A stretch of DNA of 64,000 bases from Candidatus Heimdallarchaeota archaeon (GCA_030668825.1 DAOVET010000001.1:32001-96000), one strand, 5' to 3'. Counted from the first letter of the stretch, positions 10,094 to 31,239 are shown. Numbers and translations are program-made. The notes: generated by a model not told the origin, from the letters alone.

Positions 10094-10260
10094 ATGTCTC
10101 CATGATTAGATTTTTCCGCTTTACCGTTAAATCTTTTCCTTAGATTGTCATTGCTCAAAGCTCCATCTAAGTGGATAAATCACATATCCTCCTACCCCGC
10201 CCACACTTCTATGTGGAAGTGCTTGCGGATTGCCTTTCATTAGGATATTATATGCTCCAT
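10081..10260 (-). ncRNA. Candidate omega-RNA scaffold overlapping the tnpB 3' end
   Basis: Minus-strand hairpins CACTTC-cacata-GAAGTG, GGATA-tgtgatt-TATCC and AGATTT...AAATCT, plus a long-range TAGATG...CATCTA pairing, at the position where TnpB omega-RNAs are encoded. Boundaries uncertain. Confidence 0.5.
10095..10103. repeat. 9-bp direct repeat TGTCTCCAT, copy 1 (copy 2 at 11474-11482)
   Basis: Identical 9-mer on both sides of the tnpB gene. Confidence 0.6.
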
Positions 10261-11404
10261 TCACATCAGCGTTAATGAGTATACCGTGGGCAGACCTGAA
10301 TAAACCTCGCTTAACTCGTCTTCCCTTATACTTTGTTCTTTTTCTTGAATATTCATTATCAAGAAAACTGCATTTGGAAGTGTAGTTCTCTTCAATCATC
10401 TCAACACTAATTCCTTTTTCCTCTGCTTTATACTTGAGACTATGTATGATTTTGTCAAAAGGGATGATAACAAATATCTGAGTCGTTTTATTACGTAATC
10501 GTATCTGTTGTTTCCATCGGGGATTATACCCGATAAACACTCGTTGTATATTATTTTCTACCCAGTATTTAACGAACTGTTTACTCATCTGATGAATCCA
10601 GTTTCTCACTTTTCTACGCTTAGTTTCACATAACTGGTAAAACCGTGGTCCATAACTTAGCTGATTATAATTTTGTAATGCTGAATGTTGCTGAAATGCA
10701 TACTTTTGCTGTATTTTTTTGACTTCTTTCAGATAGAACTGGATGATGGATTTGATACCTTTACCCTCATCCTTGACAACAATTGGTCTGCTGCCAATGT
10801 TGTCTACATAAGTGATGAGGTTGGTTAATCCTAGATCTATCGCTCCTAAATTATTTCCATTCACCTCAGTATCGGGAATAAGCTTACTATAGACAATCTC
10901 CACCGTATATCCTCTCCCTCGAGGAATAATTCTGACTTCTTTGAGTTTGACAGTTTCTGAAAGTCGAGTTTTCGTAGAAAATGCTATTTTCTTCGGGAGA
11001 ACTAGCTTTCTACCTATTATTCTAGCTTGCTGATTCGTGAAAATTGCTACTTGTTGGCCCTTCTTGGCTTTGTACTTGGGAGTACGAGGTTTTCCGATAA
11101 ACATTTTTGGATTATTTTTGTATTCTATCCTTGCTTGCTGAAAACTCTTCCAATTTCTGGTAAGTATTTTGAGGGTGTGTTGAGCTGTTTGAGCTGGAAG
11201 GTTTTTGTAGCATTTTTCCGTCTTCAGCTTACGATCTAGTTGCTGATACGACAAATATTGCTTCGTTTGACAATAATTTTGTTTGAACAGAAACATTGCC
11301 CGATTGTAGAGGTTCTTTGTTTGATGACACAGTTGCTGAAGAGCAGGTGTTGGATTTGTTTCTATCACTTCTGTTCTCCATACATCTTGCGCCATTTTCT
11401 TCAT
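10148..11404 (-). CDS. tnpB: TnpB RNA-guided endonuclease, stand-alone (no tnpA), rearranged RuvC-II
   Basis: KNLYN, AIDLGLTNL (RuvC-I), VFIGYNPRWKQ (G in place of the canonical E), IEENYTSKCS, INADVNGAYNI (RuvC-III). Confidence 0.93.
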   Translation of the reverse strand: MKKMAQDVWRTEVIETNPTPALQQLCHQTKNLYNRAMFLFKQNYCQTKQYLSYQQLDRKLKTEKCYKNLPAQTAQHTLKILTRNWKSFQQARIEYKNNPKMFIGKPRTPKYKAKKGQQVAIFTNQQARIIGRKLVLPKKIAFSTKTRLSETVKLKEVRIIPRGRGYTVEIVYSKLIPDTEVNGNNLGAIDLGLTNLITYVDNIGSRPIVVKDEGKGIKSIIQFYLKEVKKIQQKYAFQQHSALQNYNQLSYGPRFYQLCETKRRKVRNWIHQMSKQFVKYWVENNIQRVFIGYNPRWKQQIRLRNKTTQIFVIIPFDKIIHSLKYKAEEKGISVEMIEENYTSKCSFLDNEYSRKRTKYKGRRVKRGLFRSAHGILINADVNGAYNILMKGNPQALPHRSVGGVGGYVIYPLRWSFEQ

Positions 11405-11473
11405 TACTTTATTTTGTTTTGCTTATTTAAATCCCAAAATTTCTTTTTTTGTTTAATGGTACAATAGCATCAT

Positions 11474-11482
11474 TGTCTCCAT
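11474..11482. repeat. 9-bp direct repeat TGTCTCCAT, copy 2
   Basis: Matches 10095-10103. Confidence 0.6.
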
Positions 11483-11528
11483 AGAAACAATTATCAGCAA
11501 CAACAGAATCTTGGGAGTAGTGAGCTAA

Positions 11529-12056
11529 GTGTCAAAGAAAACATATCTTACTAACAAAATAGTTCTTATTGGTGACGCAAGAGTGGGAAAAACCTCACTT
11601 GTTCGAAGATTCGTATCAAATATGTTTGATCCATCTTACAAGATTACTTTAGGTACAACAATAATGAAAAAAGTAGTTGATTACCTTTCTTACAATGTGA
11701 CACTAGCGATCTGGGACGTAGGCGGCCAGGAGGTTTTTCGTCAAATAAGAAGCAAATATTTCTTTGGAAGTAAAGGTGCTTTAGCTATTTGTGATGCTTC
11801 CAACCTTGATTCTTTCAAGAATCTTTCTTCCTGGATTGCTTCTTTCAGTAACGAAGTTGGCGATAAACCTATCATTTTTTTAGCCAATAAATGTGATCTT
11901 AAGAATCAAGTTGTTTCTGAAGACCACTTAAAACAACTTGTTCAAGATACTCCTAAATCTGAATTCATGTTTACTTCTGCTAAAGATGGTACTAACACTG
12001 AAAAAGCCTTTATCGACCTCACTCGTCTCATGGTTGCTGAAGAAGATATTATTTAA
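11529..12056 (+). CDS. Rab-like small GTPase, probably chimeric (host 5' half plus island-supplied 3' half)
   Basis: G1 GDARVGKTS, G2 TLG, G3 WDVGGQ, G4 NKCD, G5 SAK; GTG start; no C-terminal prenylation motif. Confidence 0.93.
   Translation: MSKKTYLTNKIVLIGDARVGKTSLVRRFVSNMFDPSYKITLGTTIMKKVVDYLSYNVTLAIWDVGGQEVFRQIRSKYFFGSKGALAICDASNLDSFKNLSSWIASFSNEVGDKPIIFLANKCDLKNQVVSEDHLKQLVQDTPKSEFMFTSAKDGTNTEKAFIDLTRLMVAEEDII
11754..11797 (+). repeat. Left att-like repeat (43/44 identical to 30753-30796)
   Basis: AAATATTTCTTTGGAAG-t/c-AAAGGTGCTTTAGCTATTTGTGATGC is present at both island ends, offset 18,999 bp. Confidence 0.85.
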
Positions 12057-12057
12057 T

Positions 12058-13056
12058 TTATTCATGTTTTACTTTGTTATGCTTTTTTAGATATTCTTCT
12101 AATTTTTCTATTTTCTCTAGAAATCCTCTCTTCTTTTCCTCTTCTCTTTCCTCTCCCCTTAGATAAACATTCGGAAAACTTTCTTTTGTTTCTTTTATTA
12201 TTTTCTCGTATGGTAAATCTACTTCTTCTTCAATATACATTCTTATTTTTCCTGTTAGTGTGTCTAATATTGGTTCCACTTTGTTATAATCCAATACCCA
12301 CTGCAAGTATTTTGCTCTTCTTAAATCTGCTATTATTTCCCTACAGATATTTCTCAGTTTCTTCTTATTTGCTTGTTGTTTTTTCTTTTTCCTATATATC
12401 TCATCTAACATTACTGCTCTTATTATTCTTTCATTTACTATGTGTTCACATTCCCCATATTCTCTTTCACTTAGCGTATCTCCTAAATCATAACAAAAAG
12501 TTAAATCATCCAACATTGAGATAAAGATTATCAATTTCCTTGCAATTACACTTGTTTCATCCTTTACATCCACTCTTTGTTTTAGATTTTCATAAAATTG
12601 AACCAGTGTCCTCAGAATATCTCTTACAGTTTCTTCTTGTTGTTTTTTTTCAAACCTTCTTCCTTCTTTATTAAAATGCTTCAAATATATGCCTACCACA
12701 ATACTAAACAGTATTTCTATTTCTGGATACTTTTGTATAAAATTCCCAGATTGTATTTTCATTTTTACACTGTTAGTTAATTTCTCAATTCTCTTATTAT
12801 AATCGTCTTTCTTCTCTAATCCATATAATTCCAGTAATTCATTCTGAGCATCATTAGAAAGAATTTTTTCTGCTGTTTTAAAAAATTGGAATTCTTGTTC
12901 AATAATTGTAATGAGTTCTAAAAAATCCCAATTAAAATATCCTGTAGAAAAATAATCAATTTTTGTATATTGATGAGATACATTGTACTTTTCATCATTA
13001 ATCATGATAAAATCCAGAAATTCTTGAATTATCTGTGATTCTTGGACTTTGTTCAT
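12058..13056 (-). CDS. Hypothetical helical protein, first gene inside the island's left end
   Basis: 332-aa ORF convergent with the Rab gene (stop codons 1 bp apart); purine-ending codons in the 3' part; no family motif recognised. Confidence 0.7.
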   Translation of the reverse strand: MNKVQESQIIQEFLDFIMINDEKYNVSHQYTKIDYFSTGYFNWDFLELITIIEQEFQFFKTAEKILSNDAQNELLELYGLEKKDDYNKRIEKLTNSVKMKIQSGNFIQKYPEIEILFSIVVGIYLKHFNKEGRRFEKKQQEETVRDILRTLVQFYENLKQRVDVKDETSVIARKLIIFISMLDDLTFCYDLGDTLSEREYGECEHIVNERIIRAVMLDEIYRKKKKQQANKKKLRNICREIIADLRRAKYLQWVLDYNKVEPILDTLTGKIRMYIEEEVDLPYEKIIKETKESFPNVYLRGEEREEEKKRGFLEKIEKLEEYLKKHNKVKHE

Positions 13057-13150
13057 TTTCCTCTTTCCTTGTAATAATATTCATATTCTATAGATTTAAG
13101 CTTTCTGTGGCAAAAAAAGAGTGGAGGAGTGAAAATGACTCACCATTTCT

Positions 13151-13573
13151 TCAATTTAGGAAGTGCCAATTTGTAGTAATCCATTTGAAGAAATCTCGTA
13201 TCTTTGCTTTTTCTGGGAACGAGAAAACTAGATTTAGTGCTTCTATTTTGATTTCATTGATTAACTTTGATAACCAATTCCCACCATCACCTAATGAGTA
13301 TACACCTCTAGTGCTTTCCCATCCTGGAATAATTCTACCTGAAGTTTTCTGTTGTCCAAATCTTATGTTTATTTCTACATCATTTATACGTATATTCCCA
13401 TTCCAATCAATATCAATACGAGAAATACGATTGTTTGCTTGAATTGTACCAAAACTTATCCCATCTGGATAGAGCGAAATTTCTCTTCTTAAATATTGCA
13501 TTGCATCATCACAGTTTCTCTGATAATCTGCTAATATAAGAGCGAAAAGCTTCATCATTTCATCACAATTCAT
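13151..13573 (-). CDS. Hypothetical protein
   Basis: 140-aa ORF with plausible composition and an upstream TATA-like TTTTTATAA. Confidence 0.55.
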   Translation of the reverse strand: MNCDEMMKLFALILADYQRNCDDAMQYLRREISLYPDGISFGTIQANNRISRIDIDWNGNIRINDVEINIRFGQQKTSGRIIPGWESTRGVYSLGDGGNWLSKLINEIKIEALNLVFSFPEKAKIRDFFKWITTNWHFLN

Positions 13574-13628
13574 TCTTTTTAAACAAATAAGTTATAAAAA
13601 ATTATTATCTTAATATAAAGAGGATTTG

Positions 13629-14225
13629 TTAGTCTTTTTGAAAACGATTGTAAATAGGCTTCAAAAGAGGAACAAATAAGAGAAGAGAAAGCATCATAAA
13701 AGAAGTTGAATCTGGATTTGGACGCAGTTCAAACAAAACCAACCATGCCGAACTATGGTCTTCATCTGTCGCTAGTGGTATGTTTTCTGTAAAAGTTAAT
13801 AGGCAACGAACATTACAAGTCCCCCAATTTGAATTATAATTAATAGTTAGGTCTTGTGTAATATAGCTACCAACAGTTGTGAATTCCTCGCTATAGGTTT
13901 TTGTTTCAATGTTACCAATTGTATAAATATCTATAGTTAAACCTATGTTTTTTATTCCTTGTACATTGCTTCCAAGCGCTCCAAGTTCTATAATGATTTT
14001 ACCTTCCGCTTTCTGATTATGATTCAGAGAAACATCATCAAAAGAAGGCTTAATTAAAATCTCTGTCCCACGAGTGGTTGTTACAGTATGTACTTCAAAG
14101 GTAAGCGCAGAAGGATATGAAACAGCTGAGAAAATAAATAGTAAGCCAATGAACAGAATTTTAATCTTTTTATTCAAATGTAATTCACCGCAAATACAAA
14201 GGAAGTAAATATATTTAAAGTGCAC
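13629..14225 (-). CDS. Secreted beta-rich protein with C-terminal membrane anchor
   Basis: Signal-like KKIKILFIGLLFIFSAV (true start probably downstream of the ORF start); C-terminal STSFMMLSLLLFVPLLKPIYNR. Confidence 0.65.
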   Translation of the reverse strand: MHFKYIYFLCICGELHLNKKIKILFIGLLFIFSAVSYPSALTFEVHTVTTTRGTEILIKPSFDDVSLNHNQKAEGKIIIELGALGSNVQGIKNIGLTIDIYTIGNIETKTYSEEFTTVGSYITQDLTINYNSNWGTCNVRCLLTFTENIPLATDEDHSSAWLVLFELRPNPDSTSFMMLSLLLFVPLLKPIYNRFQKD

Positions 14226-14242
14226 TATAAGTTACTTTACAT

Positions 14243-14476
14243 ATGCGAATGAGTAACGAAGGTAAAATCATTTTCAATCACATGGGAATAGAATATAGAG
14301 AATGCATAATAGAACAATGTATGTGGAACGTCAATTGGGAAGAACTACGATTGGCAGAAGAGACAGCGGGAAGACCTCTACCAAAAAAATTCGAGGGAAG
14401 GGTGTGTAATTGTGTTCCAGAGAATCCTATAGGTATTTTAGAAGCTTCTAAAGTACGATGCAATCCAGAAGGTTAA
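14243..14476 (+). CDS. Small cysteine-containing hypothetical protein
   Basis: 77 aa, five Cys (CIIEQC...CNC...C), upstream TATTTAAA. Confidence 0.5.
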   Translation: MRMSNEGKIIFNHMGIEYRECIIEQCMWNVNWEELRLAEETAGRPLPKKFEGRVCNCVPENPIGILEASKVRCNPEG

Positions 14477-14514
14477 AAAGGTTAATTATCAACTGTAGAA
14501 TTCATTTTCTATCT

Positions 14515-14751
14515 TTATATAAAATCTTCTAATCCTAATTGTTTCTTCGGTCTCATAAAATCCTTCAGTTCCTTATCCTTTTGGTCAATGAACCATTGTT
14601 TGATGAGCTTGGTTTCAGGATCAACAACAGACTTAGGTATCCAGATAGGATTATCAACAAAACCATCAATAAGAGCTAGAAAGGCTTTCTCTGTCTCAAT
14701 ATCTACTTTACCTAACTTAAAGTCTGAATACTTACTCCGATTCTCGTCCAT
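14515..14751 (-). CDS. Small virus/plasmid-type protein (ETEKA...WIPKS motif)
   Basis: IETEKAFLAL...IWIPKSVV...IKQWF pattern, which I recall from small mobile-element proteins. Confidence 0.6.
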   Translation of the reverse strand: MDENRSKYSDFKLGKVDIETEKAFLALIDGFVDNPIWIPKSVVDPETKLIKQWFIDQKDKELKDFMRPKKQLGLEDFI

Positions 14752-14905
14752 ATTAAAAAGAAAGAGGAGATTTCAGTTTATAATGATAGAGCAAAGATGT
14801 ATATTAAGTTGGATATTTTTTCTCCTTTTTGCATTTACTTGAATAATCTAAACAAATAACTTTATTGTATTCAATTTCCAATATCTTAGATATTATGGGA
14901 AATTT

Positions 14906-15559
14906 CTATCTCTTGTTTGAATTTTTCTTTCGGATTGCGAAAATCACAGTACATATCAACAAAATGGATAATAGTGGTAATGCAAAAGAAACATTTGTTT
15001 GTTCAGTAGGATAATAGTCAAATTCAATGTAAGTGACATTCATATTACCTGAATTCATCTTTATTAAAGCAGGTAGTTCTAGAGTAGTTATGTTATTTAC
15101 AAAATAACCTGTATTTATTGGTCTCCAGAGAGTATAATTTCCATCCTCGGGTTGAGATAAACCCGATTGATTAATATAAAATTTCACGTAACTATGTTCA
15201 ACAGTGATTCCTGGAGCATAAGAATAGTGCATTATTGTTGCATGAGCTATCATCAATGGATCAATTACCAGTGTTTGGTTACTAAGGGTTGCATTTATGA
15301 AGACTTTAGGATAAAAATCTGATAACTCAACTACTGTTTGATTTTCCTCAGCTCTATTCAGAATTTCTACAGTAACACCGATACCAAATAGAGTAGAATT
15401 TGGTTTATTATATAGATTAGTAATTACAGCAATTTCACTAACTTCTGATACTCTTGAAGCAATAACAGGAAGATTACCAGAAACTGATAAATTGATTGAA
15501 GAAACACATATGTATGCAATTAATATTAAAGTAAGATATTTTCCTAGTGGTTTAATCAT
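14906..15559 (-). CDS. Secreted glycoprotein-like protein with C-terminal TM anchor and basic tail
   Basis: N-terminal signal, several NxS/T sequons, TEQTNVSFALPLLSILLICTVIFAIRKK; SD-like GGAGG upstream. Confidence 0.75.
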   Translation of the reverse strand: MIKPLGKYLTLILIAYICVSSINLSVSGNLPVIASRVSEVSEIAVITNLYNKPNSTLFGIGVTVEILNRAEENQTVVELSDFYPKVFINATLSNQTLVIDPLMIAHATIMHYSYAPGITVEHSYVKFYINQSGLSQPEDGNYTLWRPINTGYFVNNITTLELPALIKMNSGNMNVTYIEFDYYPTEQTNVSFALPLLSILLICTVIFAIRKKNSNKR

Positions 15560-15571
15560 ACTTTTTCCTCC

Positions 15572-15620
15572 ATTTAATCTTTTTAGCAGACGTACCTAAT
15601 TAAAGTTAAGTACGAGGTTT
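15572..15620. terminator. Intergenic hairpin (CGTACCTAA...TTAAGTACG), possible terminator
   Basis: Imperfect inverted repeat just downstream of the S8 peptidase stop codon. Confidence 0.3.
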
Positions 15621-15628
15621 AATAATTC

Positions 15629-16825
15629 TTACCTTGCTAGTCTCCCCTCCGTATATGCCTTTCCAAATGCTAAATAAGCATCTATATATCCATATCCAAA
15701 TTTTTGATCAAAAGTGCTTCGCGAACTAGCATAGTATAAGATATCCAAAACTTTCTGGAGAGAAGGGTCAGTAGAAGAACCTATTCCATTGTGATAAGCT
15801 GTTATTATCAAAGCAATTGTTGCAGCCAAATAGGGAGTACTAAAACTGGTTCCAGCTCCATATTTCCAAATACCTCTATAGATTCCAAGTGATTGATCAT
15901 AATATGCATCCGTTAATATAGGTATACCATTCCCTGGTTCTACCCAGTTTACAATATGATTACCTGTAGTATAAGATTTATACCAAGATGAAAACCAGGA
16001 TTTATGATGTATCCATGAGTCGCTTCGATCTTCATGATCTATTGAACCAACAGCATACCACTCAGAGTAATATGATTGATACATGTAATTATAACCCCAA
16101 CGGTAATTAAGATAATTGTAATAGTTACCAGCTGCTGTAAGTAACATCACATTTTTAGTAATCAAACTTGCCCATTTTTGATGGATTGTTGTATCTTCAG
16201 TAAAATCAATTCTTGAGACCCAAGACCATGAAACTATATCGATATCCTTTGATGCTTGATTATCATCTATCCATTCCCAAATTTCATATTGTCCATAAGT
16301 AAATCCATAGGGATCATATAACTCTTCCTCTTCATTTTCCACATATAAATCGATAAAAATGACTTTTACATCTCTGGCGATGGAAGCTAGTACAGATATA
16401 ACTGCAAATCCATGTCCATGAAACACTTGATTGTCTAGAAATGGATCATTAGGATTAGTAATGAATTTTATTTCATTATAACATCTGAAATCGTTTGTTA
16501 AGAACCCAACAATATCCACATTCGCTTCAGGATTTTGTTCTAAAGCTTTCCATTCCAAATCAGTTAAACCATCATCAATTATTACGACAGTAACATAATC
16601 ATCTATAGTAACTCCATGCTCATACACAATTACATCTGTTTCTGTATACTTATATGCTGCATCTTGAAGATTTCCAACTTTTACTGCTGGATTTATAACA
16701 GGATCACCAATTGCTCCGCATTTTAACCAATCTAACATTTTGAGTTGATTATTACACATATCAGGTAAAGGTGCCAATCCAATACATACTATCAAGCAAA
16801 AGGAAAGAATTTTTTCATATTTCAT
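15629..16825 (-). CDS. Secreted S8 (subtilisin-like) serine peptidase
   Basis: Catalytic triad VIIDDG, HGHG, GTSFSTP; oxyanion AAGN; C-terminal FGYGYIDA; signal peptide. Confidence 0.88.
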   Translation of the reverse strand: MKYEKILSFCLIVCIGLAPLPDMCNNQLKMLDWLKCGAIGDPVINPAVKVGNLQDAAYKYTETDVIVYEHGVTIDDYVTVVIIDDGLTDLEWKALEQNPEANVDIVGFLTNDFRCYNEIKFITNPNDPFLDNQVFHGHGFAVISVLASIARDVKVIFIDLYVENEEEELYDPYGFTYGQYEIWEWIDDNQASKDIDIVSWSWVSRIDFTEDTTIHQKWASLITKNVMLLTAAGNYYNYLNYRWGYNYMYQSYYSEWYAVGSIDHEDRSDSWIHHKSWFSSWYKSYTTGNHIVNWVEPGNGIPILTDAYYDQSLGIYRGIWKYGAGTSFSTPYLAATIALIITAYHNGIGSSTDPSLQKVLDILYYASSRSTFDQKFGYGYIDAYLAFGKAYTEGRLAR

Positions 16826-17044
16826 TATTCTTGACTCCTAGATAGTAATTTTATCAAATTCTAGATCCTCTTGTTTCCTTAAAAACCTGTCTTATTTTCA
16901 GATGCTGCAAATGTGTCGTAAATTTCCAATATTCTTTCTTTCATTTCTTTCAATGTTGTTTTTACCACCTTTATAAATCAAACTCCTGATAATAGTTCAC
17001 CTACACTCCTTGTTTTACATCCCACTGAAAGTAAAAAAGGATAG

Positions 17045-17599
17045 TTGGTGAAAGAAGTGGGTAAGAACATGTATACAAGATTAAAAGAAGAAGTAAAGAA
17101 ATATCTCTCCTCTTTTAAAAGGTTTCAAGAAGAACTACAATCATTTAAAGAATTTAGAAGAAGTATTGATTTACCATCAGAGATGACAATAGATCTATCG
17201 GAAACTAAGGACCAGATGGAAGCTATTAGAAGATATGAAGCAAGATTACAGAAAGGAAAAGATGATCCAACTTGGTTTACTCTCACTAAGATGGTTACTG
17301 ATGTTTTTTTCGAGATGAAAAAAGAGTTTGAGGTATTCATGCAAGAACCTCAGTTTCTAGAAGGTAGAAAGTGTAAAAATCTAGTTGATTTAACTACTTA
17401 TGTAGTTGGAGAATTACAAGAACTAGAAGTTAAGCTTTACTCCAAACACATGGATGAAGTAGATTGTTCTGTTTGTAACCAAAGTCATCTTATTCTTGAT
17501 GAGAATAGAGCAGAACAGACATGTAAAAACTGTGGCATAGTAATTAGAGATAAGATATCCGAAGAGGAAATTAGTCTTAAATCACAACCTTTTTTCTGA
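17045..17599 (+). CDS. Coiled-coil protein with a C-terminal TFIIB-type zinc ribbon
   Basis: CSVCNQSHLILDENRAEQTCKNCGIVIRD matches the TFIIB/TFB ribbon CxxC...D...E..C..CG.V..D. Confidence 0.75.
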   Translation: MVKEVGKNMYTRLKEEVKKYLSSFKRFQEELQSFKEFRRSIDLPSEMTIDLSETKDQMEAIRRYEARLQKGKDDPTWFTLTKMVTDVFFEMKKEFEVFMQEPQFLEGRKCKNLVDLTTYVVGELQELEVKLYSKHMDEVDCSVCNQSHLILDENRAEQTCKNCGIVIRDKISEEEISLKSQPFF

Positions 17600-17663
17600 T
17601 AAAAACTTAAAAAGGATAAGGATAAATTCTACTAATCTTAATTATTACTTAAATAACGAATAT

Positions 17664-18242
17664 TTGGATGGAAAAATAATGACTATTGATGGTTATGATT
17701 TACAGGATGGTTTTACTAGAAATTATCATTCCTTTCAATTGACAGGAGAGCATACAAATACTACTTGGACACATAGAATCCTCGGTTACTTTGATAGACT
17801 GGGGAGAATGCTAGGATACGAAGTACAATTTGAAAAAGAAATATATGATTTAACTTGGTGGGATTATTCAATTAATCAAGAAAAAGGGAAGATTATTCTC
17901 CATGTCGAACATGAAAATTCAACAAATAAGAATAAGATAATCGAAGAAACTTTAGAATACAAAATTCTAGATTCTGAAGCAAAAATAGCTCTTGCTATCT
18001 GTTATCCTAATAATTCTCAAGATTTTGATGAAATTAAACTTTGGATTAAAAAGAATGTTAAAAAACGAATGAAAGCAGAAGAAGTAGCCATCATAGTAGA
18101 TGGTTGTTGTTATGGAGAAGAACCATATCATTTTGCAGTTCACATGATTACGAAAAAGAAATCAGAACTATACCTTTATGACAAAATAACAGTAAATGAA
18201 TATCATTGCTTAGAGTATAAGACAGAAGAAAATTACGCGTGA
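17664..18242 (+). CDS. PD-(D/E)XK-superfamily nuclease-like protein
   Basis: LGYEVQFEKEIYDLTWW...ILHVEHEN...K: a D...ExE(N) variant active-site pattern. Confidence 0.6.
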   Translation: MDGKIMTIDGYDLQDGFTRNYHSFQLTGEHTNTTWTHRILGYFDRLGRMLGYEVQFEKEIYDLTWWDYSINQEKGKIILHVEHENSTNKNKIIEETLEYKILDSEAKIALAICYPNNSQDFDEIKLWIKKNVKKRMKAEEVAIIVDGCCYGEEPYHFAVHMITKKKSELYLYDKITVNEYHCLEYKTEENYA

Positions 18243-18271
18243 TGGACGTATCGTGTAAAATTGTGAATTAT

Positions 18272-18502
18272 TCATTGATTTTGTATTCTCGCTTTTATTT
18301 TTTTTGTTTCTTCTTCAGATAAAATCTTATCTCTCTTCCCTAAACTACATTCTTTGCATGTTGTTGCTAGATTGTCTAGTGAATGTTCTTTTACTATTGA
18401 CCAAGGTATAATATGGTCAACTTGTAATTCAACTTCTGGAGCTGAACGACCACAAATTATACAAGAAAAATTATCTCGTTGTAGAACCTCAAATCTCAAA
18501 CT
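18272..18502 (-). pseudogene. HNH endonuclease domain, probably 5'-truncated
   Basis: LRFEVLQRDNFSCIICG...LQVDHIIP...NLATTCKECSLGK. Begins immediately after the stop of the upstream gene, and the usual final Asn (CN..K) is Ser. Confidence 0.7.
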
Positions 18503-19126
18503 TTAAGGAATTGAACTTTCATCATCTTTTTTGATTTTTGCTGTAAATACAAAACCCCCTAAACATACAAAGAAAATTCCAAATGTTAAGAGAAAAGCAC
18601 CAATAACCATCCACCACCATTCTAAGTCAAAAACTAATATCCATAATCCAACAATAGAAGAATATAGTAAGTTCAAGTAAGTACGTCCTCTGAATATCAA
18701 TCTGCAAAACAATTCCTTTCCATTCTTTGGAATACTATAACCTAGAATATATTTCCTGATTTCTTCATTATCAAATCCTTTTATTTGTAATCGAACAAAA
18801 TGCAGAAGCACGTATTCTTTCATCTCTTCGTACATAGTTGTAAGATTAAAATAATTGCACCCAATAACAAAGATTCCAATAAAAATTACAAAACCAATCC
18901 GTAGATAAGGTTCATCATTTTGTGTTGAAGGAAAATCGATCTGAATGTAACTTGAACCAAAATACGCTCCTAATGAAATTATTGCTAACAATGATGGGAA
19001 TACAGAAATAAATCTAAACTTTTGAGAATTTAGGAATTTAATTCTATTAAGAATCTGTTCATGAAGAGTCAGAAGTTGTTCTTGTGGAATATCATCGTTT
19101 TCTTTCTTATCATCTTTTTTTGTCAT
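18503..19126 (-). CDS. Membrane protein (about 4 TM helices)
   Basis: Two pairs of hydrophobic segments. Confidence 0.7.
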   Translation of the reverse strand: MTKKDDKKENDDIPQEQLLTLHEQILNRIKFLNSQKFRFISVFPSLLAIISLGAYFGSSYIQIDFPSTQNDEPYLRIGFVIFIGIFVIGCNYFNLTTMYEEMKEYVLLHFVRLQIKGFDNEEIRKYILGYSIPKNGKELFCRLIFRGRTYLNLLYSSIVGLWILVFDLEWWWMVIGAFLLTFGIFFVCLGGFVFTAKIKKDDESSIP

Positions 19127-19338
19127 TTTCTTTCATCGTAAACAGATAAATAGCACATATTTAAATCCCGATGTTTTTTTCACTAAATATAATAGATGTA
19201 AGAATTTTAATTTTTTTTCAATTTTCGGTATGTTTCTGATACTATACACTCCAATAATTCGTCAAAAACTACTTTTTATACTCAAATTTAAATAGAATAA
19301 AAAATAATTAAGATTGCTTTGAGTAATTCGTATATAAG

Positions 19339-19884
19339 TTGGGAAAAATCATGAATAACACTTCAAATAACAAAAGTGATGAACAACTACAATATGAATT
19401 AAAAAAACTAATAGACAAGTATAATAAATTCAAGAGAGACAAAGGTCGTTCAGGTTTAAATAAATTGAATGAAGCAGAAGTAAGAAAAGACTTCATTGAT
19501 CCTTTCTTTGCAATTCTTGGGTGGAATATTCATGATTCCTCAGAGTATGGTACTGAAGAACATATCAAAGGTGTAGGAAGAGCAGATATCATATTAAGAG
19601 ATTCCAAGCTTATTTCCACAAAACCTCAAAGTCTTGTTTATGTTGAAGCAAAACGGTTTGGTATTCTTCATTCTAAACCACTTGATACTAAACAAGTTGA
19701 TCTTTTGGGAAAATTTGTTCCTGATTGGACAGAAGAAGATAGACAAGCAACTAATTATGCAATGGCAAAAAACATAAGATGGGCAAGAATTAATGGAATA
19801 TATCCTATTGTTGTCAGTCAAGAAATCAACAATCAGATAATGGGTAAAATAACATTTGAAATTATTGCACATTCAGATATTTAA
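19339..19884 (+). pseudogene. HsdR_N-like restriction endonuclease N-terminal domain, truncated (type I/IIG R-M remnant)
   Basis: NEAEVRKDFIDPFFAILGW, GRADIIL, VEAKR, QATNYA..IRWA. The sequence then departs from the expected W.ILTN and stops; no methyltransferase follows. Confidence 0.75.
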
Positions 19885-19910
19885 TATTTTGTTAATTAGG
19901 TTCAGAAAAT

Positions 19911-22256
19911 TTATAATAAATTAGCTAAATCATTTAATACCTCAAATTCTGAAAAATCGGTTCCAATTCTCTCCACTAATCTATATATCATTTCACTACT
20001 TGTGCTTTTTAATCTAATTTTTTCTCCAGCAATTTCTTCTAAAACTTCTTCTAAAGAGCCCAATTTCCAAATAAATATATTATCTTCTAAAAGGAGTTTG
20101 GTAAAATCATTTAGAATTTGTTCATTTGCTAAAACATTTTCTAGATTCTTATCAAGAAACTTAGATAATTCTTCTTGTTCTTTGAATTCATTTAGCATTT
20201 TTCCAAGAACAGAATCCTTGAAAGGTAAATATTTCTTTTTTGTATCCCCTTTAGTTTTGTTTGCAATTGGAAAAGCTGCATCTAGATCTACTACTATTAA
20301 GGCTTCAACCTCAAGTTTTTTTATTAGTTTCCAAACAATTGGAAGGTTTCTAATTCCATGTAATTCAATTATATCCCAACCATTTGATTCTAATTTGAAA
20401 TTCTCAGGAAAATTAGTCCCCAGTTCTTCAACGAATAATTTATCGTTTGGTCCTTCTACAATCATAACTTTGTTAGAAAAGAGTAGTTTATTTACACTGT
20501 CGATTCTTTTTAGGAATTTACTTGCTTTACCTTCAGATGACTTTCTTTTTGATTCTTCTTCTTTGTCATCAATCTCAGATATGTTAAATCTTATTAGTTT
20601 TCCATATACACCTTTCCAGATTTGTGTTCTGAGAAAATCGTTAATGAAATATGGGGAATGAGTAATCAAAATATAAGTAGGAATAATCTCTTCATTTAGA
20701 TAGTTCGATATTGTGTTAATCACTTTTCTTTGTAGTTGTGGATGTAATGCTCTTGCTGGCTCATCAATTATGATTGTTTTATCTCCTCTTTCAAATAAAG
20801 AAGTTAGAATCATTAAAGTTTCATAAGCTCCACTTGGTGCTTCATGCATCTCTATTGGTACATTCATGCTATCTGTAAATTGAATTAAGGGAGCTCTTTC
20901 TATAACATTTTCTTCTATATCAGCCCATTTAACATTTTTTTGAATATCTTCATTATATCCTGTTGTTGATGTTGTTCTAATAACATCCCCAATTATAAGT
21001 TTAGGATAATTTTCTGTTACTCTAATTGGTTCTTCTTTTACATAAACATCAAATTTCATTTTGAAAAGATTCTCAAATTCTTTCTTTAAATCATAAAATC
21101 TCTTTCGTTCATTCTGTATAGAAGAATTTTTCCATCTATAAAGTGTTTCAGATAATTGGTTTATGGTGAAATAGCTGATACCCGAATAATCTTCAGCAAT
21201 AAGACCTCTATGTTCAGGTATAATAATTGTTCTGTTTTTAAAGAGTTTTTTAATAATGTTGCAAAAAATAATATGAGAACCTTCATTTTCAATCGGATAA
21301 AACGCTTTAATTTTTTGAAATACTTCATATGAAAGATTTTTAATTTCACCCTTTCCATACTTTAGATTCAGATTTGGTAAAGTTATCTTATAGGAAATAT
21401 CTGCATCAAATGTACTTTCAAGCATTTTGTTTACAACATTAGGAGAAATTTTAGCATCATCTTTTCTCAAAAAAATATGCATTGCTTTTAGTAAACTTAG
21501 ATTAACATCACTGTTCTTCTCATTACTTAAACCATCATAATCTATTAGATAGCATCTAGATTTCTGAAAAACAGATATTGAAGGTATCAATCTAGTAACA
21601 TCTGCTTTAAGATTAACTTTTATTTTCTTAAATAGTTGACCGATATTAGAATGCATATCATTTGATAAAAGAATCCTCTTGAATTCTAATAGTCTATTAC
21701 CTTTCAAAAAACCAAGTTTAAAAGTAAAATCAGACTTTTCAAGGGTTTCTTTAAATTTCTCAAAGTTATTTTTATCCAGTTTTGAAAAAAGTTGATTTCT
21801 TTTTTCTTGAATTTTCAGCACTGGGGTTTGTTTAGTCTCAGGCAATTTAAGATTTAAAATATTTTTATTAAATTCATATAGATTATTGATTTCGTTATCA
21901 TCAATATCAAATATAATTTCTCTGATGAACATTTCCTTGAAATCATTAAATCTGTTTGATTCTTCCATCTCTTCTATTTCTCTATAGATACTCACGCATA
22001 ATATTGAACCAAGTAGTTCCTGCTCAAATTTTGATAGTTCAAGTTCTATGTTTAGGTTAATATCTGGATCATATTTACCTAAATCTACAGAGTTTTTTTC
22101 TAAACACAAACCCACCAGTTTAATAGCTCTTACTACATTGGTTTTTCCAGATCCATTAGGTCCAACTATGAAGTTGTTTCCGTTGTTAAAAGTGATTTCT
22201 TGGGTATCTTCTCCATAAGACAGGAAATTCCTGAGTTGGAGTGATGTAATTTTCAT
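19911..22256 (-). CDS. OLD-family ATP-dependent nuclease (ABC ATPase + TOPRIM)
   Basis: LRNFLSY, GPNGSGKT (Walker A), IIDEP (Walker B), THSP, VEGPND and DLD (TOPRIM). Confidence 0.88.
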   Translation of the reverse strand: MKITSLQLRNFLSYGEDTQEITFNNGNNFIVGPNGSGKTNVVRAIKLVGLCLEKNSVDLGKYDPDINLNIELELSKFEQELLGSILCVSIYREIEEMEESNRFNDFKEMFIREIIFDIDDNEINNLYEFNKNILNLKLPETKQTPVLKIQEKRNQLFSKLDKNNFEKFKETLEKSDFTFKLGFLKGNRLLEFKRILLSNDMHSNIGQLFKKIKVNLKADVTRLIPSISVFQKSRCYLIDYDGLSNEKNSDVNLSLLKAMHIFLRKDDAKISPNVVNKMLESTFDADISYKITLPNLNLKYGKGEIKNLSYEVFQKIKAFYPIENEGSHIIFCNIIKKLFKNRTIIIPEHRGLIAEDYSGISYFTINQLSETLYRWKNSSIQNERKRFYDLKKEFENLFKMKFDVYVKEEPIRVTENYPKLIIGDVIRTTSTTGYNEDIQKNVKWADIEENVIERAPLIQFTDSMNVPIEMHEAPSGAYETLMILTSLFERGDKTIIIDEPARALHPQLQRKVINTISNYLNEEIIPTYILITHSPYFINDFLRTQIWKGVYGKLIRFNISEIDDKEEESKRKSSEGKASKFLKRIDSVNKLLFSNKVMIVEGPNDKLFVEELGTNFPENFKLESNGWDIIELHGIRNLPIVWKLIKKLEVEALIVVDLDAAFPIANKTKGDTKKKYLPFKDSVLGKMLNEFKEQEELSKFLDKNLENVLANEQILNDFTKLLLEDNIFIWKLGSLEEVLEEIAGEKIRLKSTSSEMIYRLVERIGTDFSEFEVLNDLANLL

Positions 22257-22477
22257 AAATATTTTAGTCTCAACTTAATTTATAAATCATACGATTGAAT
22301 GTTCATTTAAAATTCTAATCAATCAGATTCTATGATTGGTTGGTTTAAAGAAAGAATCTATCTCCACTTTATTGATTTCCAAATTTTTAATATCAATTTC
22401 TCTGCTAAACATAAATAGTACTACTACGAAGATCAATATACAGTAAGAATCAAATAAAAAGTGTAAATTCTGATGTT

Positions 22478-22849
22478 CTAATACTGTCTTTTTCTATTAA
22501 GAAAGTTTGCTTCTACTTCTGCTTCTATCTCTTCTCTTATCTTCTCCTCCATTCTTTCAGCCCATTTATTGAAGAGATACTTAAATGGTAACACTTCTAT
22601 TAAGAATAATAGTAAGAATATTCCAGAACCTATTACTCCCAATATTCTCAATAATATCATCCATATTGCTTCCCCCAAAACTGTCTTCTCAAAATAGAAT
22701 GCTGCTGCTGTTCCGCAAATAAACACTACTGCTCCTATGAACGCACCTAATCTATCTTCCCAGCTAAATACTTTTTCTCTCTCTCTTCTTATCCTTTCTG
22801 CGTATCTCTTTAATTCAGTATTTTTTATTATCATATAAACCCAAACCAT
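22478..22849 (-). CDS. Small two-TM membrane protein
   Basis: Two hydrophobic helices flanked by charged segments; strongly purine-ending codons. Confidence 0.65.
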   Translation of the reverse strand: MVWVYMIIKNTELKRYAERIRREREKVFSWEDRLGAFIGAVVFICGTAAAFYFEKTVLGEAIWMILLRILGVIGSGIFLLLFLIEVLPFKYLFNKWAERMEEKIREEIEAEVEANFLNRKRQY

Positions 22850-22951
22850 ATCTTTTTTTCATCTTTCTACTCATCTCTGCAGGATGTGTTTCTTCTATTA
22901 TTATCACCATCCACATGACGAAAAATACTGTCAAATATCCCATTATCTCTA

Positions 22952-23266
22952 TCAACTTATCCCCTCCACTAACAGCTCCCCTATTGTCCTCTCTGTCATC
23001 TCAAAGAAGCTCATTATCCCCTCACTCTCATGGATCAGTTCATGTAGTTTCTTTAGTTTCACTTCCCTTCCCAGATTATCCTCGAAAGCTATCTCATAAC
23101 TCCATGCTCTCTTCTCCCTCTCTTCTATCATCCACTCCTTCTGTTCTTCAAAGAAGTTCTTCAGGAAGAATTGTAATCCATATACTGTCGTTATCTTCTG
23201 TCTTGTTAGTTCTATCCTTCCCTCTTTCCCTTCTACATAGATTACAAAGACCATATTCCAGTTCAT
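22952..23266 (-). CDS. Hypothetical protein
   Basis: 104-aa ORF with the same skewed codon usage as 22478-22849. Confidence 0.6.
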   Translation of the reverse strand: MNWNMVFVIYVEGKEGRIELTRQKITTVYGLQFFLKNFFEEQKEWMIEEREKRAWSYEIAFEDNLGREVKLKKLHELIHESEGIMSFFEMTERTIGELLVEGIS

Positions 23267-23349
23267 TTTGCTCTATTTTGCTTATCAGAACTTTGGTTTA
23301 TAAAGTAGGGAAAGTTTTTTTCTCGAGTTTTTAAATCAATTTACAGATT

Positions 23350-23432
23350 AGTGGTTGAAGCTGGCACAAACCCTTGAAATTCATATATCTAAAAAATATA
23401 ACTCATCACACTTTAGCTGGCTTCGACCCACT
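23350..23432 (+). other. Long imperfect inverted repeat with G-U pairs (structured RNA or ssDNA hairpin)
   Basis: AGTGGTTGAAGCTGGC (23350-23365) pairs with GCTGGCTTCGACCCACT (23416-23432): 16 pairs including 3 G-U and one bulged C, followed by a pyrimidine run. Confidence 0.55.
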
Positions 23433-23665
23433 CTTTTCTTCTCTCAATCTCCTTCATCAGTTACTTATGGAAGCAAAATTAAAAATCTGGGTTTTAGATT
23501 GATAAAATAGAGAAAATTAGTGAATTTTTCAACCTTCCTCTCAAACACCTGAAAAAAATAGACTTCTAACTTATCTCACATTTAGTATTTCTATATCCTT
23601 ATTTTATTTCGATAGAGGAAAATCAAAAATGCAAAAATCAAACAAACTATTCTTGTTCAAGTATA

Positions 23666-25333
23666 CTATCTTCTTCTTTTAGAACTAAATCGGGAATAAC
23701 CAAATACAATTAGTGGGATTAGTACAATTAAAGAAAGAAACGAGTAGTAAATATTATTATTCCTATAAACTGGAGGTTCAGAAAGAGGATAAAGATCTTG
23801 TGCATTTGCAAATCCATCAATATAATAGCTACCAACTACCACAAAATAGTCTGACCAATAATTTCCTTCCTCATTTTCTTCATCATACCAGAGATTATCT
23901 CCATCATCTCTCGCTTGGGAAGTACCGTAATACTGGTTGTTATTGTAAAAGGAATTATGGTGAACAAGATTGTTGACTGAATCTTCATCTAAAAATACTC
24001 CCCAAAAATAATTATTAGTTAAAGTATTGTAAGTAATAGAGATATTTGATGAGTTTTCAAGCACTAACCCATGATTATTATTGCTTAAAATATTATTTTC
24101 GATTAATGAATTACTTGTTTGCACAAGTAGAATCCCTTGTTTTTTATTGAAACTACAGTTATTGTTCATGATGGTTATTCTATCACTAAATTTAACATGT
24201 ATTCCTATTAATGTTTGATCCAAGACTTGATTTTTTATCATGAATTCAGAGCAATTGGAAATAAATAGCTGACCATAGATTGGTTTTGTTATTTTCAAAT
24301 TATTTTGGTTTGTAAAATAACCGTACTCTTTTCCATTTATCATATTGTTGTACACTGTGTAAGTATGATAATCTGCTGGATTTAATTCGTAAAAATAATA
24401 GTCACACTCTGTTAATGTATTCCCAATAAATTCAGAAAATTCTGAATCCCTTACATATATACCATTAGACTCGGTAGTAATTTCATTATTTATAACAGAG
24501 ACATTTCCACTATATACTACTGTTAATCCTATTCCTCCTCCAAAACAGTAATTGTCTGTTACTACAGAATCATTTGAATGAGATAATCGAATGTTAAACT
24601 GAACATTATTGAAACAAGAGTTATTTGCAACTAAAGCTGCTCTAGATGTATGAAGATATATCCCTCCTAAATAAGAATTGTTATGAAGAGAATTGCTAAC
24701 AACGGTAGCGAAGAAACTGCTACCAAGAAGTAATCCTCCTTTGAAATTATCTGAAATATTATTACCATAGATATAACTAGAATTACAATTATTAAGGAAA
24801 ATACCTCCTTCATTACTCTTTGTACATGTATTATTTACGATTCTAATATTTGGTGAAAATATTACATGGATACCATAGCGTAAACCTTCATTACATGTAT
24901 TTTTGATGAGCTCTATACCTTCTGCTTTACTGATCTCCATCCCAGATTTTTGATAATTCTGACACAAATTTTCCTTAATTTTGATACTGTTAGGTGCTAC
25001 ATTTAGAATATAGATACTGTAGTTATCACCATCCAGAAAACAATTTTGGATCAGGAAGCATTTGGTAGTATAAGATATTGATATACACGCTTCTTCGGTT
25101 GTAGTAATGTTAAGATTCTCTATACGGTAAGGATCTACAGCTGTTCCTTCTCCTGGTAAGCTGTAAAGAGAGATATTGGTATCAGATTGTATGACAATAG
25201 GTATCGAGATTATATATGAATTAGAATTTAAATTTCCACTATCTGTGGTAGCTGTAGTAATTTCTATACTCCAACTTTTCATTAGAATTAAACTGAAACA
25301 CACCACTACTAGTAACCCTTTCTGATATTTCAT
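23666..25333 (-). CDS. Cell-surface right-handed parallel beta-helix (NosD/CASH) protein with C-terminal TM anchor
   Basis: GEGTAVDPYRIENLNI, repeated NN..GI.L, GNYWSDY, DLYPL, TM plus KRRR. Confidence 0.88.
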   Translation of the reverse strand: MKYQKGLLVVVCFSLILMKSWSIEITTATTDSGNLNSNSYIISIPIVIQSDTNISLYSLPGEGTAVDPYRIENLNITTTEEACISISYTTKCFLIQNCFLDGDNYSIYILNVAPNSIKIKENLCQNYQKSGMEISKAEGIELIKNTCNEGLRYGIHVIFSPNIRIVNNTCTKSNEGGIFLNNCNSSYIYGNNISDNFKGGLLLGSSFFATVVSNSLHNNSYLGGIYLHTSRAALVANNSCFNNVQFNIRLSHSNDSVVTDNYCFGGGIGLTVVYSGNVSVINNEITTESNGIYVRDSEFSEFIGNTLTECDYYFYELNPADYHTYTVYNNMINGKEYGYFTNQNNLKITKPIYGQLFISNCSEFMIKNQVLDQTLIGIHVKFSDRITIMNNNCSFNKKQGILLVQTSNSLIENNILSNNNHGLVLENSSNISITYNTLTNNYFWGVFLDEDSVNNLVHHNSFYNNNQYYGTSQARDDGDNLWYDEENEEGNYWSDYFVVVGSYYIDGFANAQDLYPLSEPPVYRNNNIYYSFLSLIVLIPLIVFGYSRFSSKRRR

Positions 25334-25387
25334 TTTATCACTCTTGTTTTATCTTCTAAATCTCACTTATTCACAATTTATTCTGAA

Positions 25388-27109: not shown

Positions 27110-27273
27110 GCAAAATCCTCTTCACTCAAAATAAGGCAGATATTAATTTTTAAAGATTTTGACTGCATTTTAATTAATTTCCTTTTTCGAATACTATTAT
27201 AAGTGTTTAAGATATATTATTCTAGATAAAAAGACGGTTCAAACATATAGAAGACTTATCTAAAGGTGAAAGA

Positions 27274-30417: not shown

Positions 30418-30585
30418 TCTTGATTAGATGTTATAAGTACAAACGCGCTCTTAAAAATTCTTTGGAACATTGCTATAGCGCAAAACATAGAATCCATTTT
30501 ATCATTCTCGCCCTTCAAATTATCATAAAACTAGTGGAGTAGCAATGATATATGAAATTCTATCTTTTTACAAGTAATATAAATT

Positions 30586-30712
30586 GACACCGGTGGACAG
30601 GGGATGTTTACCTATCTCCGTCCCAAATACTACTCTTGACATCCCTGTTATCATCTGCGGTAACAAATTTGACCTTAACGAAGCTCGTACTCTTGATAAA
30701 GATACTATTTAA
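30586..30712 (+). pseudogene. Relic of a second, different Rab-like GTPase 3' half (G3 and G4 motifs, internal deletion)
   Basis: Manual translation: DTGGQGMFTYLRPKYYS* (30586-30639), then in another frame DIPVIICGNKFDLNEARTLDKDTI* (30638-30712). Confidence 0.8.
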
Positions 30713-30725
30713 ATTATATTCGTCT

Positions 30726-31055
30726 CAAGAAGTTTTCAGACAAATCAGAAGTAAATATTTCTTTGGAAGCAAAGGTGCTTTAGCTATTTGTGATGCCTCT
30801 AATTCTGAATCTTTTAAGAATATCCCCTCGTGGGTTGAATCTTTTAAAAAGGAAGTGGGAGATAAGCCTATCATTTTTCTAGCAAATAAATGTGATTTGA
30901 AGGATCAACAAGTCACTGAGGATGACATGAAACAATTGGTTAAGGATTACAGTAACACTGAATATCTGTATTCCTCTGCAAAAGATGGAACAAATGCTGA
31001 AAAAGCTTTCATCAACTTAACCAGACTTATGGTTGCTGAAGAAGATATAGTATAG
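30726..31055 (+). pseudogene. Displaced 3' half of the Rab-like GTPase at 11529
   Basis: QEVFRQIRSKYFFGSKGALAICDASN...NKCD...SAK...AEEDIV: 109 aa, colinear and 84/109 identical (hand count) to 11727-12056; no G1/G2 upstream. Confidence 0.92.
30753..30796 (+). repeat. Right att-like repeat
   Basis: 43/44 identical to 11754-11797. Confidence 0.85.
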
Positions 31056-31239
31056 TTATTTGAATAATTCTCTTAATCCGTTTGAGCTTCTTTCTTTATA
31101 AGGTTCAAAGCAAGAGTGATTTCCCAAAAAAACCTAATTCTTATAGTTTATCCATAAATTTCTGAAAATCACTAATCTAAGAAACCTTTTTATTATTGAA
31201 GGAGAGTTTTATTTTTGAGAATCTAAAAGGCGAACAACA

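Follow-up and report, generated by a model that had tools for sequence, protein, structure and literature searches.

Local strand-specific pyrimidine skew at the likely crossover core of an island-interrupted small GTPase gene in a Heimdallarchaeota genome

We analysed a 64,000-nucleotide stretch of a Candidatus Heimdallarchaeota archaeon genome (GCA_030668825.1 DAOVET010000001.1:32001-96000; hereafter the window, with positions counted from its first letter), in which a Ras/Rab-like small GTPase gene is interrupted by an island that carries its own 3' half of the gene. From the likely crossover core outward, the plus strand is almost wholly pyrimidine (Y, that is C or T, as opposed to purine, R) at four-fold-degenerate codon sites across two convergent genes. 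The observation is confirmed as real and statistically extreme. The asymmetry is local and strand-specific, whichever way the genes run; it begins at the crossover core, is near-saturated, persists through divergence and meets a boundary of elevated divergence. Our preferred reading, to which we assign a probability of about one half, is that the skew is a persistent, polar bias at the DNA level anchored at the recombination core, and that it forms a local patch instead of being a property of the island as a replicon.

Skew was scored at four-fold-degenerate codon sites, and all scans for skew or for switches of skew covered one archaeal family. The host genome (G000; 2.76 Mb in 138 contigs, ~33% G+C) yielded 2,298 called open reading frames (ORFs), of which 2,276 have at least 30 four-fold sites. 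Its four-fold background is A.397, C.097, G.079 and T.427, giving Y =.524 with a per-ORF standard deviation of.07 (2,276 ORFs). Relatives are cited by genome and locus: L003 is G012 and L005 is G009, L079 lies in G013 and L056 in G024. The features of the window are as follows.

11529..12056, plus strand: chimeric Ras/Rab-like small GTPase gene, host 5' part and island-borne 3' part (Pfam Ras PF00071)
11727..11797, plus strand: stretch common to the left and right copies, the right one being 30726-30796 (alignments, direct repeat D1)
11799..12053, plus strand: island-derived replacement 3' half of the GTPase gene (four-fold counts, synonymous divergence)
11777..12583, no strand: skew patch 1 (four-fold counts, 200-base profile)
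12058..13056, minus strand: gene X, 332 amino acids (aa), no known family, first island gene, convergent with the GTPase gene (ORF)
12058..30725, no strand: inserted island, ~18.7 kb (empty site in relative L003)
22478..23334, no strand: skew patch 2, two small minus-strand genes at 22478-22849 and 22952-23266 (four-fold counts, all-site Y)
30586..30712, plus strand: broken relic, 3' part of a paralogous small GTPase (translation, hand count)
30726..31055, plus strand: displaced native GTPase 3' part, Q67 to stop (alignment, synonymous divergence)
10148..11404, minus strand: TnpB-like (IS605 OrfB) gene, outside the island (Pfam PF07282 and PF01385)

All 34 four-fold codons of the replacement 3' half (11799-12053) end in C or T (27 T, 7 C), a count made by hand in the initial annotation and borne out in the GTPase frame. 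The many A/G endings it reported for the other two parts are likewise present, the 5' half (11529-11798) having 22/42 Y and the displaced right copy 19/29 Y past its CDA motif, that is, 10 purine endings. The probability of 34/34 is 2.9e-10, or 6e-5 when multiplied by 218,769 windows. All-Y windows of 34 consecutive four-fold sites make up 38 of the 218,769 within-gene windows, with no all-R window among them, and are confined to 3 of the 2,298 ORFs (the GTPase gene; a formate-tetrahydrofolate ligase gene, hereafter FTHFS, on contig C27; and a gene with KKPTA tandem repeats); ordinary genes are therefore not frequently all-pyrimidine, the circumstance that would have made the pattern unexceptional. 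The GTPase run itself extends over 38 sites (11775-12038) and is the third longest genome-wide.

The minus-strand genes mirror this pattern to differing degrees. Gene X has 57/71 purine endings and a coding-strand Y of 0.197, the lowest of 2,276 ORFs, and the gene at 22952-23266 has 25/27; for both, the mirror image described earlier stands. At 22478-22849, calling purine endings almost universal was an overstatement, the proportion being 24/34, with a coding-strand Y of 0.294 that is the tenth lowest genome-wide. The relic at 30586-30712 is mostly C/T-ending as first noted (17/19 four-fold codons, hand count), and within the skewed blocks the plus strand is indeed pyrimidine-rich regardless of coding direction. 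Taken as one segment, patch 1 has 73/75 Y at plus-strand four-fold sites across the two convergent genes (p = 1.5e-19) and an all-site Y of 0.65, and is the second-strongest of 33 segments genome-wide, where within-gene shuffles yield 5-18 segments.

The identity of the interrupted gene and the direction of the exchange are clear. ORF 11529-12056 matches Pfam Ras PF00071 (E 6.5e-37, residues 10-168) and bears the G1 and G3 motifs of the Ras family, GDARVGKT and DVGGQE; orthologues are present in 22 of the 24 other genomes of the genus. The stretch shared by left and right copies begins at the QE of the G3 motif, and its last 45 bases (11753-11797) hold a single mismatch, identity falling to ~75% beyond in the pairwise alignment; on this alignment the 45 bases are the likely crossover core. 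The direct repeats as a whole (11727-12026 and 30726-31025) are 75% identical, a brief identical stretch persists at the extreme gene end, and the GTPase ORF is intact. The empty site is seen in L003 (G012), where Memo, the GTPase gene and SBP are contiguous and to which the right copy and its downstream DNA align at 92%. Against native orthologues the right copy has 92-98% DNA identity (98% to G009, L005, at 0.063 substitutions per synonymous site, dS), whereas the left and right 3' halves differ at dS 1.68 (proportion of synonymous differences, pS, 0.67; nonsynonymous divergence, dN, 0.20; ratio omega 0.12). Given the empty site and this difference in dS, the left 3' half is the imported one, as the initial annotation had proposed, and its further proposal that this half was long kept by purifying selection is likewise supported, by an omega of 0.12 at dS 1.68. 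The island lies inside the GTPase gene: a crossover in the G3/switch-II coding stretch brought in its own 3' half, which completes the gene, and the host 3' half was displaced to 30726-31055.

Contigs from four runs, each of a different study, contain the window DNA and both junctions, every listed piece having 0-7 differences; since the same DNA occurs in four independent runs, the arrangement is no assembly artefact. No circle or empty-site joint within 11400-31300 was found in contigs of the 4 runs, contigs being unable to show absence, and a joint 12437->22948 in run X5 was judged unreliable, with 27 letters on one side and low-complexity CT-rich sequence. At ~12085-12135 and 23123-23201 contigs of other metagenomes break and their loose ends lead into different sequence, which suggests that some populations have an island-type GTPase end attached to other DNA. 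Four bases within 11738-11750 differ in contigs from three further runs, X6, X8 and X10 (T>C, A>T, A>C, A>T), and the variants can be read as ATA AGA -> ATT CGT, two more R-to-Y synonymous changes that lengthen the Y run upstream. The gene also has a mosaic history, the displaced 3' half being at dS 0.06 to the native gene of G009 and the 5' half of the same gene (11529-11798) at dS 0.49.

The skew does not extend along the island. Plus-strand Y in gene X decays from 35/37 (12058-12583) to 22/34 (12584-13056), and patch 1 ends within ~1.3 kb, its flanks having 0.52-0.54 Y in the 200-base profile and in counts. Patch 2 spans ~0.85 kb with an all-site Y of 0.655; a paralogue of its gene 22952-23266 on contig C45 is unskewed (13/26). 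The rest of the island has 397/790 Y (13629-22256) and 382/754 Y (23666-30417) on the plus strand. Because these remaining 1,544 island sites are 50-51% pyrimidine, the description of the skew as marking the island backbone fails; profiled along the window, it is limited to two blocks, one of ~0.8 kb beside the left junction and the other, of ~0.85 kb, spanning 22478-23334.

The initial annotation had explained the skewed blocks by a past on a replicon with rolling-circle or strand-displacement replication, and in this form, with transfer as a single strand as a variant, the blocks would be remnants of an element one of whose strands lost purines over a long time. Pyrimidine enrichment of the plus strand whatever the coding direction, in two blocks and the relic, would suit such a history, and so would the one-armed shape of patch 1, which fades from the core as a region displaced first from a nick could. 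Homologues of island gene 13629-14225 are also pyrimidine-rich on the coding strand over the whole gene, at 0.91 in G013 (L079 3312-3965) and 0.89 in G024 (L056 4631-5317); the window copy has a Y of 0.56. Against a replicon stand the 1,544 balanced sites, a two-armed switch at the same site in native host genes of G014, and the occurrence of the pattern in vertically inherited host DNA, including an ATPase whose purine-rich arm has low divergence (all described below). Nor was any Rep/HUH, relaxase or integrase domain found by Pfam in 20 proteins (17 island-encoded and three flanking, namely TnpB, GTPase and Memo), or any Rep, relaxase or integrase among the 10 island proteins that were additionally searched against PHROGs, an absence that is weak and unproven because several island proteins have no family. 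We consider a replicon past quite unlikely and no longer hold to that part of the initial annotation.

Among the proteins that could be named, the island encodes an S8 peptidase, a TFIIB-like zinc ribbon protein, an OLD-family nuclease, two NosD-like beta-helix proteins and membrane proteins, in addition to gene X. The OLD-family nuclease (19911-22256; TOPRIM and AAA ATPase, 781 aa) is likely a defence gene. It is possible that the island integrated via homologous crossover. A six-frame relic search of nine non-coding island zones returned only the GTPase relic (30578-30709) and a small ORF family at 14518-14772. The relic, which lies directly left of the displaced native fragment, reads DTGGQGMFTYLRPKYYS and LDIPVIICGNKFDLNEARTLDKDTI, each ending in a stop; it begins at its own G3 motif, DTGGQ, and has an internal deletion or frameshift and an early stop. 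It resembles the GTPase paralogue that adjoins gene X in G013. As the relic is the 3' part of a different paralogue and starts at G3, the island has switched target between paralogues at the G3 motif. A further partial copy of the same paralogue is present in G000 (C3 5110-5388; aa 103-195, 81%).

The TnpB-like gene at 10148-11404, 125 bases upstream of the GTPase gene, is unskewed (plus-strand Y 0.54). It has a 96% match in G009 (L005); most relatives have no such gene separating Memo from the GTPase gene. TnpB copies are numerous and scattered across the genome.

Gene X lies beside a small GTPase gene in two other genomes as well. It matches no Pfam or PHROGs family and has no usable match in a protein atlas; its AlphaFold model is all helices with a mean pLDDT of 60. 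Homologues number eight proteins in a large database, two of them source-named Heimdallarchaeota, and 5 of the 31 genomes of the family carry the gene. In both G024 and G013 it again faces the 3' part of a GTPase gene in convergent orientation. The G024 copy (85% identity) follows the GTPase gene, whose 3' half has 22/27 Y; a non-coding spacer there is also pyrimidine-rich on the plus strand, and the displaced GTPase fragment is on a separate contig. In G013 gene X is convergent with the paralogous GTPase, whose four-fold sites are almost wholly Y directly after DTGGQ, the plus-strand counts at that junction being 3/28 and 2/31.

In G014, which lacks the island, the GTPase gene stands in its native gene order, and there too the 3' half has 32/33 Y. 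Its plus strand has 17/97 Y over the downstream host gene and the GTPase 3' half and 50/63 Y over the upstream Memo gene, so that polarity changes in mid-GTPase in a two-armed switch. Orthologues of these skewed host genes elsewhere are unskewed (0.54 and 0.50). The coding strands of three neighbouring host genes are purine-rich, the exception being the GTPase 3' half.

These neighbourhoods bear on an explanation by selection on RNA, in which the minus-strand transcript of gene X would run through the GTPase 3' half in antisense and be kept purine-rich and unstructured, the Y endings of the GTPase being its mirror; in a circular form the transcript would go on in the direction of the next minus-strand gene. 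The minus strand stays purine-rich without a break from within gene X, past the stop codon, to the GTPase 3' half, the G024 spacer shows the same bias in non-coding DNA, and the three G014 host genes are purine-rich on the coding strand, as this explanation would have it. Its difficulties are that it gives no reason for a switch at the crossover core or at conserved motifs, that four-fold sites show no genome-wide purine loading (Y = 0.524), that no known RNA family was found in 10000-24000 (Rfam, E <= 0.1), and that the gene divergent from FTHFS is pyrimidine-rich on its coding strand (0.60-0.68), following the DNA strand and not the transcript. Selection on RNA is unlikely in our estimation but stays a serious rival.

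The substitutions separating the two GTPase 3' halves are directional. Among the 70 differences, transversions from right to left copy comprise 32 R>Y and 5 Y>R; at codon position 2 there are 6 R>Y and 0 Y>R, and the choice of Leu, Arg and Ile codons in the left half has shifted to CTY, CGT and ATY relative to the right copy. The shifts at position 2 and between codon families indicate a compositional pressure on DNA or RNA, not a preference at the level of tRNA. The direction of change also counts against the idea that the island half was recoded for stability, that is, selected to differ from the host copy and thereby to prevent recombination between the repeats and deletion of the island. 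Identity of ~75% beyond the 45-base core with saturated synonymous sites, and with only a brief identical stretch at the gene end, is what such selection could produce, but divergence for its own sake needs no direction and would account neither for the purine-ended codons of gene X nor for patch 2, G014 or the host genes. Other diverged pairs in the genome are unskewed, and recoding is in our view very doubtful.

Two families of host genes show comparable switches. FTHFS on C27 is the strongest skew patch of G000, and all 15 of the 15 full-length orthologues in the genus have 0.27-0.48 Y in aa 1-279 and 0.74-0.96 in aa 280-488. Displaced partial copies of FTHFS are likewise Y-rich (66/94 to 77/90); the partial 3' copies in the genus (L021-L050) start at aa 259-282 (9 matches), 369-387, 439-459, 488-499 and 526, starts at aa 269-282 being frequent, and are sometimes in tandem, with three on G020:C22. 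FTHFS is plainly an integration hot spot in the genus. At C27 8630-18566 in G000 an FTHFS fragment is displaced by 8 kb across an island with a beta-helix protein and a large membrane protein, as in the island of the window. A P-type ATPase of G000 has 15/109 Y before its GDGVND motif and 60/76 after it, a switch that 10 of the 11 scored orthologues share and that is much weaker in the eleventh, L071 (~0.38 then ~0.51); two paralogues of 30% identity also switch, making three paralogues that do so at GDGVND. The C134-type ATPase has no clear partial 3' copies in 25 genomes, and the C33-type has one (aa 447-954, 79%), in G041, 3.6 kb downstream (G041:C36 733-8683; L094, L104), a locus that resembles a further case of insertion within a gene by DNA bringing its own gene end. 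The FTHFS and ATPase switches recur in a second genus, g10, and are found neither in the sister genus g13 nor in nine genomes of another family.

In these genes the skew outlasts the turnover of individual sites. Between G000 and most members of the genus, four-fold sites in the Y arms are at 0.8-1.0 of saturation, with transversion differences at 0.02-0.25; as the Y class is kept while the sites turn over, the pressure is ongoing. Divergence is moreover uneven along the genes. Compared with L023, the Y arm of FTHFS is at 0.74 of saturation and the 5' part at 0.18; compared with L062-L065, the ATPase Y arm is at 0.79-0.92 and the 5' part at 0.20-0.31, with aa identities of 0.87-0.89 and 0.95-0.96, respectively. 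The divergence boundary coincides with the switch in both, which would fit either replacement of a 3' 'cassette' or a local hypermutable zone.

FTHFS likely being highly expressed, and its pyrimidine-rich arm being also enriched in C (41/96 versus a background of 0.097), ordinary codon bias or translational selection might be invoked, as might chance. The p value of patch 1, the restriction of all-Y windows to three ORFs, the boundaries within genes and the opposite sign in a convergent gene do not fit such causes. Ribosomal-protein genes have ~0.5 Y (0.49-0.57 in a cluster of G004 whose members we take by recognition to be ribosomal proteins), and the orthologues in g13 and in the nine genomes of another family lack the pattern; codon bias or chance is an extremely improbable explanation. 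A gene of G000 at C56 423-1172, presumably ribosomal protein S11 (recognised without a family scan), has Y, then R, then Y blocks at its four-fold sites, and genome-wide no other gene has a strong Y->R switch; its product has a 120-aa Lys/Glu-rich N-terminal extension.

The reading that we prefer, a polar bias anchored at cores, can be put as one rule compatible with every case: the strand that leads 5'->3' away from the core would turn pyrimidine-rich, whichever gene lies there. We infer a polar process at the DNA level tied to recurrent recombination or cassette replacement at cores, for which three candidates may be named. Repair or displacement synthesis primed at the core might have a pyrimidine-biased error spectrum; purines might be lost from a nascent or displaced strand left single-stranded during break-induced or nick-primed synthesis; or conversion might be biased, with heteroduplex arising from the core and its R-R mismatches treated unlike its Y-Y ones. 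Simple 5'-resection in which the 3' tails lose purines predicts the opposite sign. The idea of nicking and displacement survives only in this local, core-anchored form. More tentatively, and as a possibility we hold to be less than probable, the family may harbour an undescribed polar process at recombination cores in coding DNA for conserved motifs, which turns the outgoing strand to pyrimidines and the opposite arm to purines, the same cores serving islands for swaps of 3' 'cassettes' in GTPases, FTHFS and possibly P-type ATPases.

Several results weigh against a polar, core-anchored bias. Neither a core nor a gene relic is recognisable beside patch 2 (22478-23334). At the right junction (attR) the island-side arm has ~0.5 Y and is not purine-rich, so the window shows a single arm only; the host side is mildly Y-rich (85/123). 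Intact genes paired with a 3' fragment in G000 are Y-rich in only 3 of 17 cases (GTPase, 42/43 versus 25/37; FTHFS; and C133), and the pair on C39 goes the opposite way (7/31). The excess of one polarity is weak when counted by loci, with 8 R->Y and 3 Y->R in G000, G045 (800 kb) and G001 (400 kb) combined, and in the sister genus g13 switch loci are about as dense and fall in other genes (3 in 800 kb of G045). The switch window ranks first for conservation over 10 aa in the ATPase and fifth in FTHFS. Non-synonymous sites of FTHFS are directionless relative to the unskewed g13 orthologues (9 versus 9 and 35 versus 32), and the mechanism is read from polarity alone: no nick, break, single-stranded form or recombinase was seen. 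By the same comparison with g13, the purine-rich arm of the ATPase shows a mild non-synonymous direction.

The scan behind the locus counts compared 35 four-fold sites on each side of a position and counted loci at |d| >= 0.6. By positions, G000 has 146 R->Y and 27 Y->R switches, falling to 14 and 13 after within-gene shuffling; there are 53 R->Y and 28 Y->R in the 800 kb of G045 (g13), and 3 and 11 in the 400 kb of G001. Three broader formulations were discarded on these data. That island-borne 3' ends are always all-Y is ruled out by the 3/17 pairs, and the skew is therefore no general mark of island-borne gene ends; that switches are confined to one genus is ruled out by the three loci in G045, and the phenomenon is therefore wider than the genus; that the switch always falls at the single most conserved motif holds for the ATPase and fails for FTHFS. 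For about 10 further genes of G000, a short 3' fragment lies on the gene's own contig at a distance of a few kb (for example C116 28193-29326, C22 28086-29255, C29 20642-22519 and C127 9361-11223), and these are candidates for attachment sites of other islands in protein-coding genes.

A full-text literature search returned no description of such intragenic purine/pyrimidine switches, and in the available part of PMC8813620 the words 'skew' and 'pyrimidine' each have 0 occurrences.

Parts of the pattern resemble known systems. Replication-associated strand asymmetry is familiar as GC/AT skew and as the purine asymmetry of PolC-type Firmicutes. As in those cases, one strand is here enriched in a base class whatever the gene direction and the sign changes at a defined point, but the arms measure 0.5-1 kb and not a replichore, the R/Y bias is near-saturated (97% of free sites) and the switch is intragenic at a recombination core; with patch 1 ending within ~1.3 kb, skew of the origin/terminus type over replichores is not what we see. 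Single-stranded and rolling-circle replicons have T-rich coding strands, with purine loss or T gain on the single-stranded strand. Their skew is replicon-wide, whereas 1,544 island sites are unskewed here and no Rep was found.

Integrative elements that carry a replacement 3' gene end classically target tRNA genes, and archaeal examples have pNOB8/SSV-type integrases. The present island is like them in that direct repeats of the target flank it, the gene is left intact and a relative has the empty site. It differs in that the target is protein-coding and cut at a conserved motif, the carried piece is ~110 codons long and synonymously saturated, no integrase was detected and the paralogue-fragment relic shows a past change of target.

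Kataegis denotes strand-coordinated clusters of mutations at breaks or break-induced replication, arising as single events in single cells and mostly C>T or C>G. Common to both are polar, strand-specific changes that reach no further than ~1 kb from a DNA end and are opposite in sign on its two sides; here, by contrast, we see an evolutionary steady state of R-to-Y bias maintained through saturating divergence. Szybalski's rule, the purine loading of transcripts, is echoed by gene X and the three G014 host genes. Purine loading is absent genome-wide at four-fold sites, however, and the GTPase 3' half, the 3' arms of FTHFS and the ATPase and the FTHFS-divergent gene oppose it.

Strand asymmetries are usually attributed to replication or transcription acting over long distances, and the present case is of kilobase scale, near-saturated, starts at a core and crosses gene borders. 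An intragenic anomaly of codon usage or skew need not imply a foreign replicon. If a polar process at cores is indeed responsible, the skew would be a readable footprint of recurrent replacement of gene segments. As a mark of recurrent cassette replacement it would allow recombination hot spots, and the attachment sites of islands, to be located in uncultured Asgard archaea from sequence only, and would give a handle on Asgard DNA repair. It would also mean that mobile elements rewrite halves of conserved host genes in these organisms, including the small GTPases discussed in connection with eukaryote origins.

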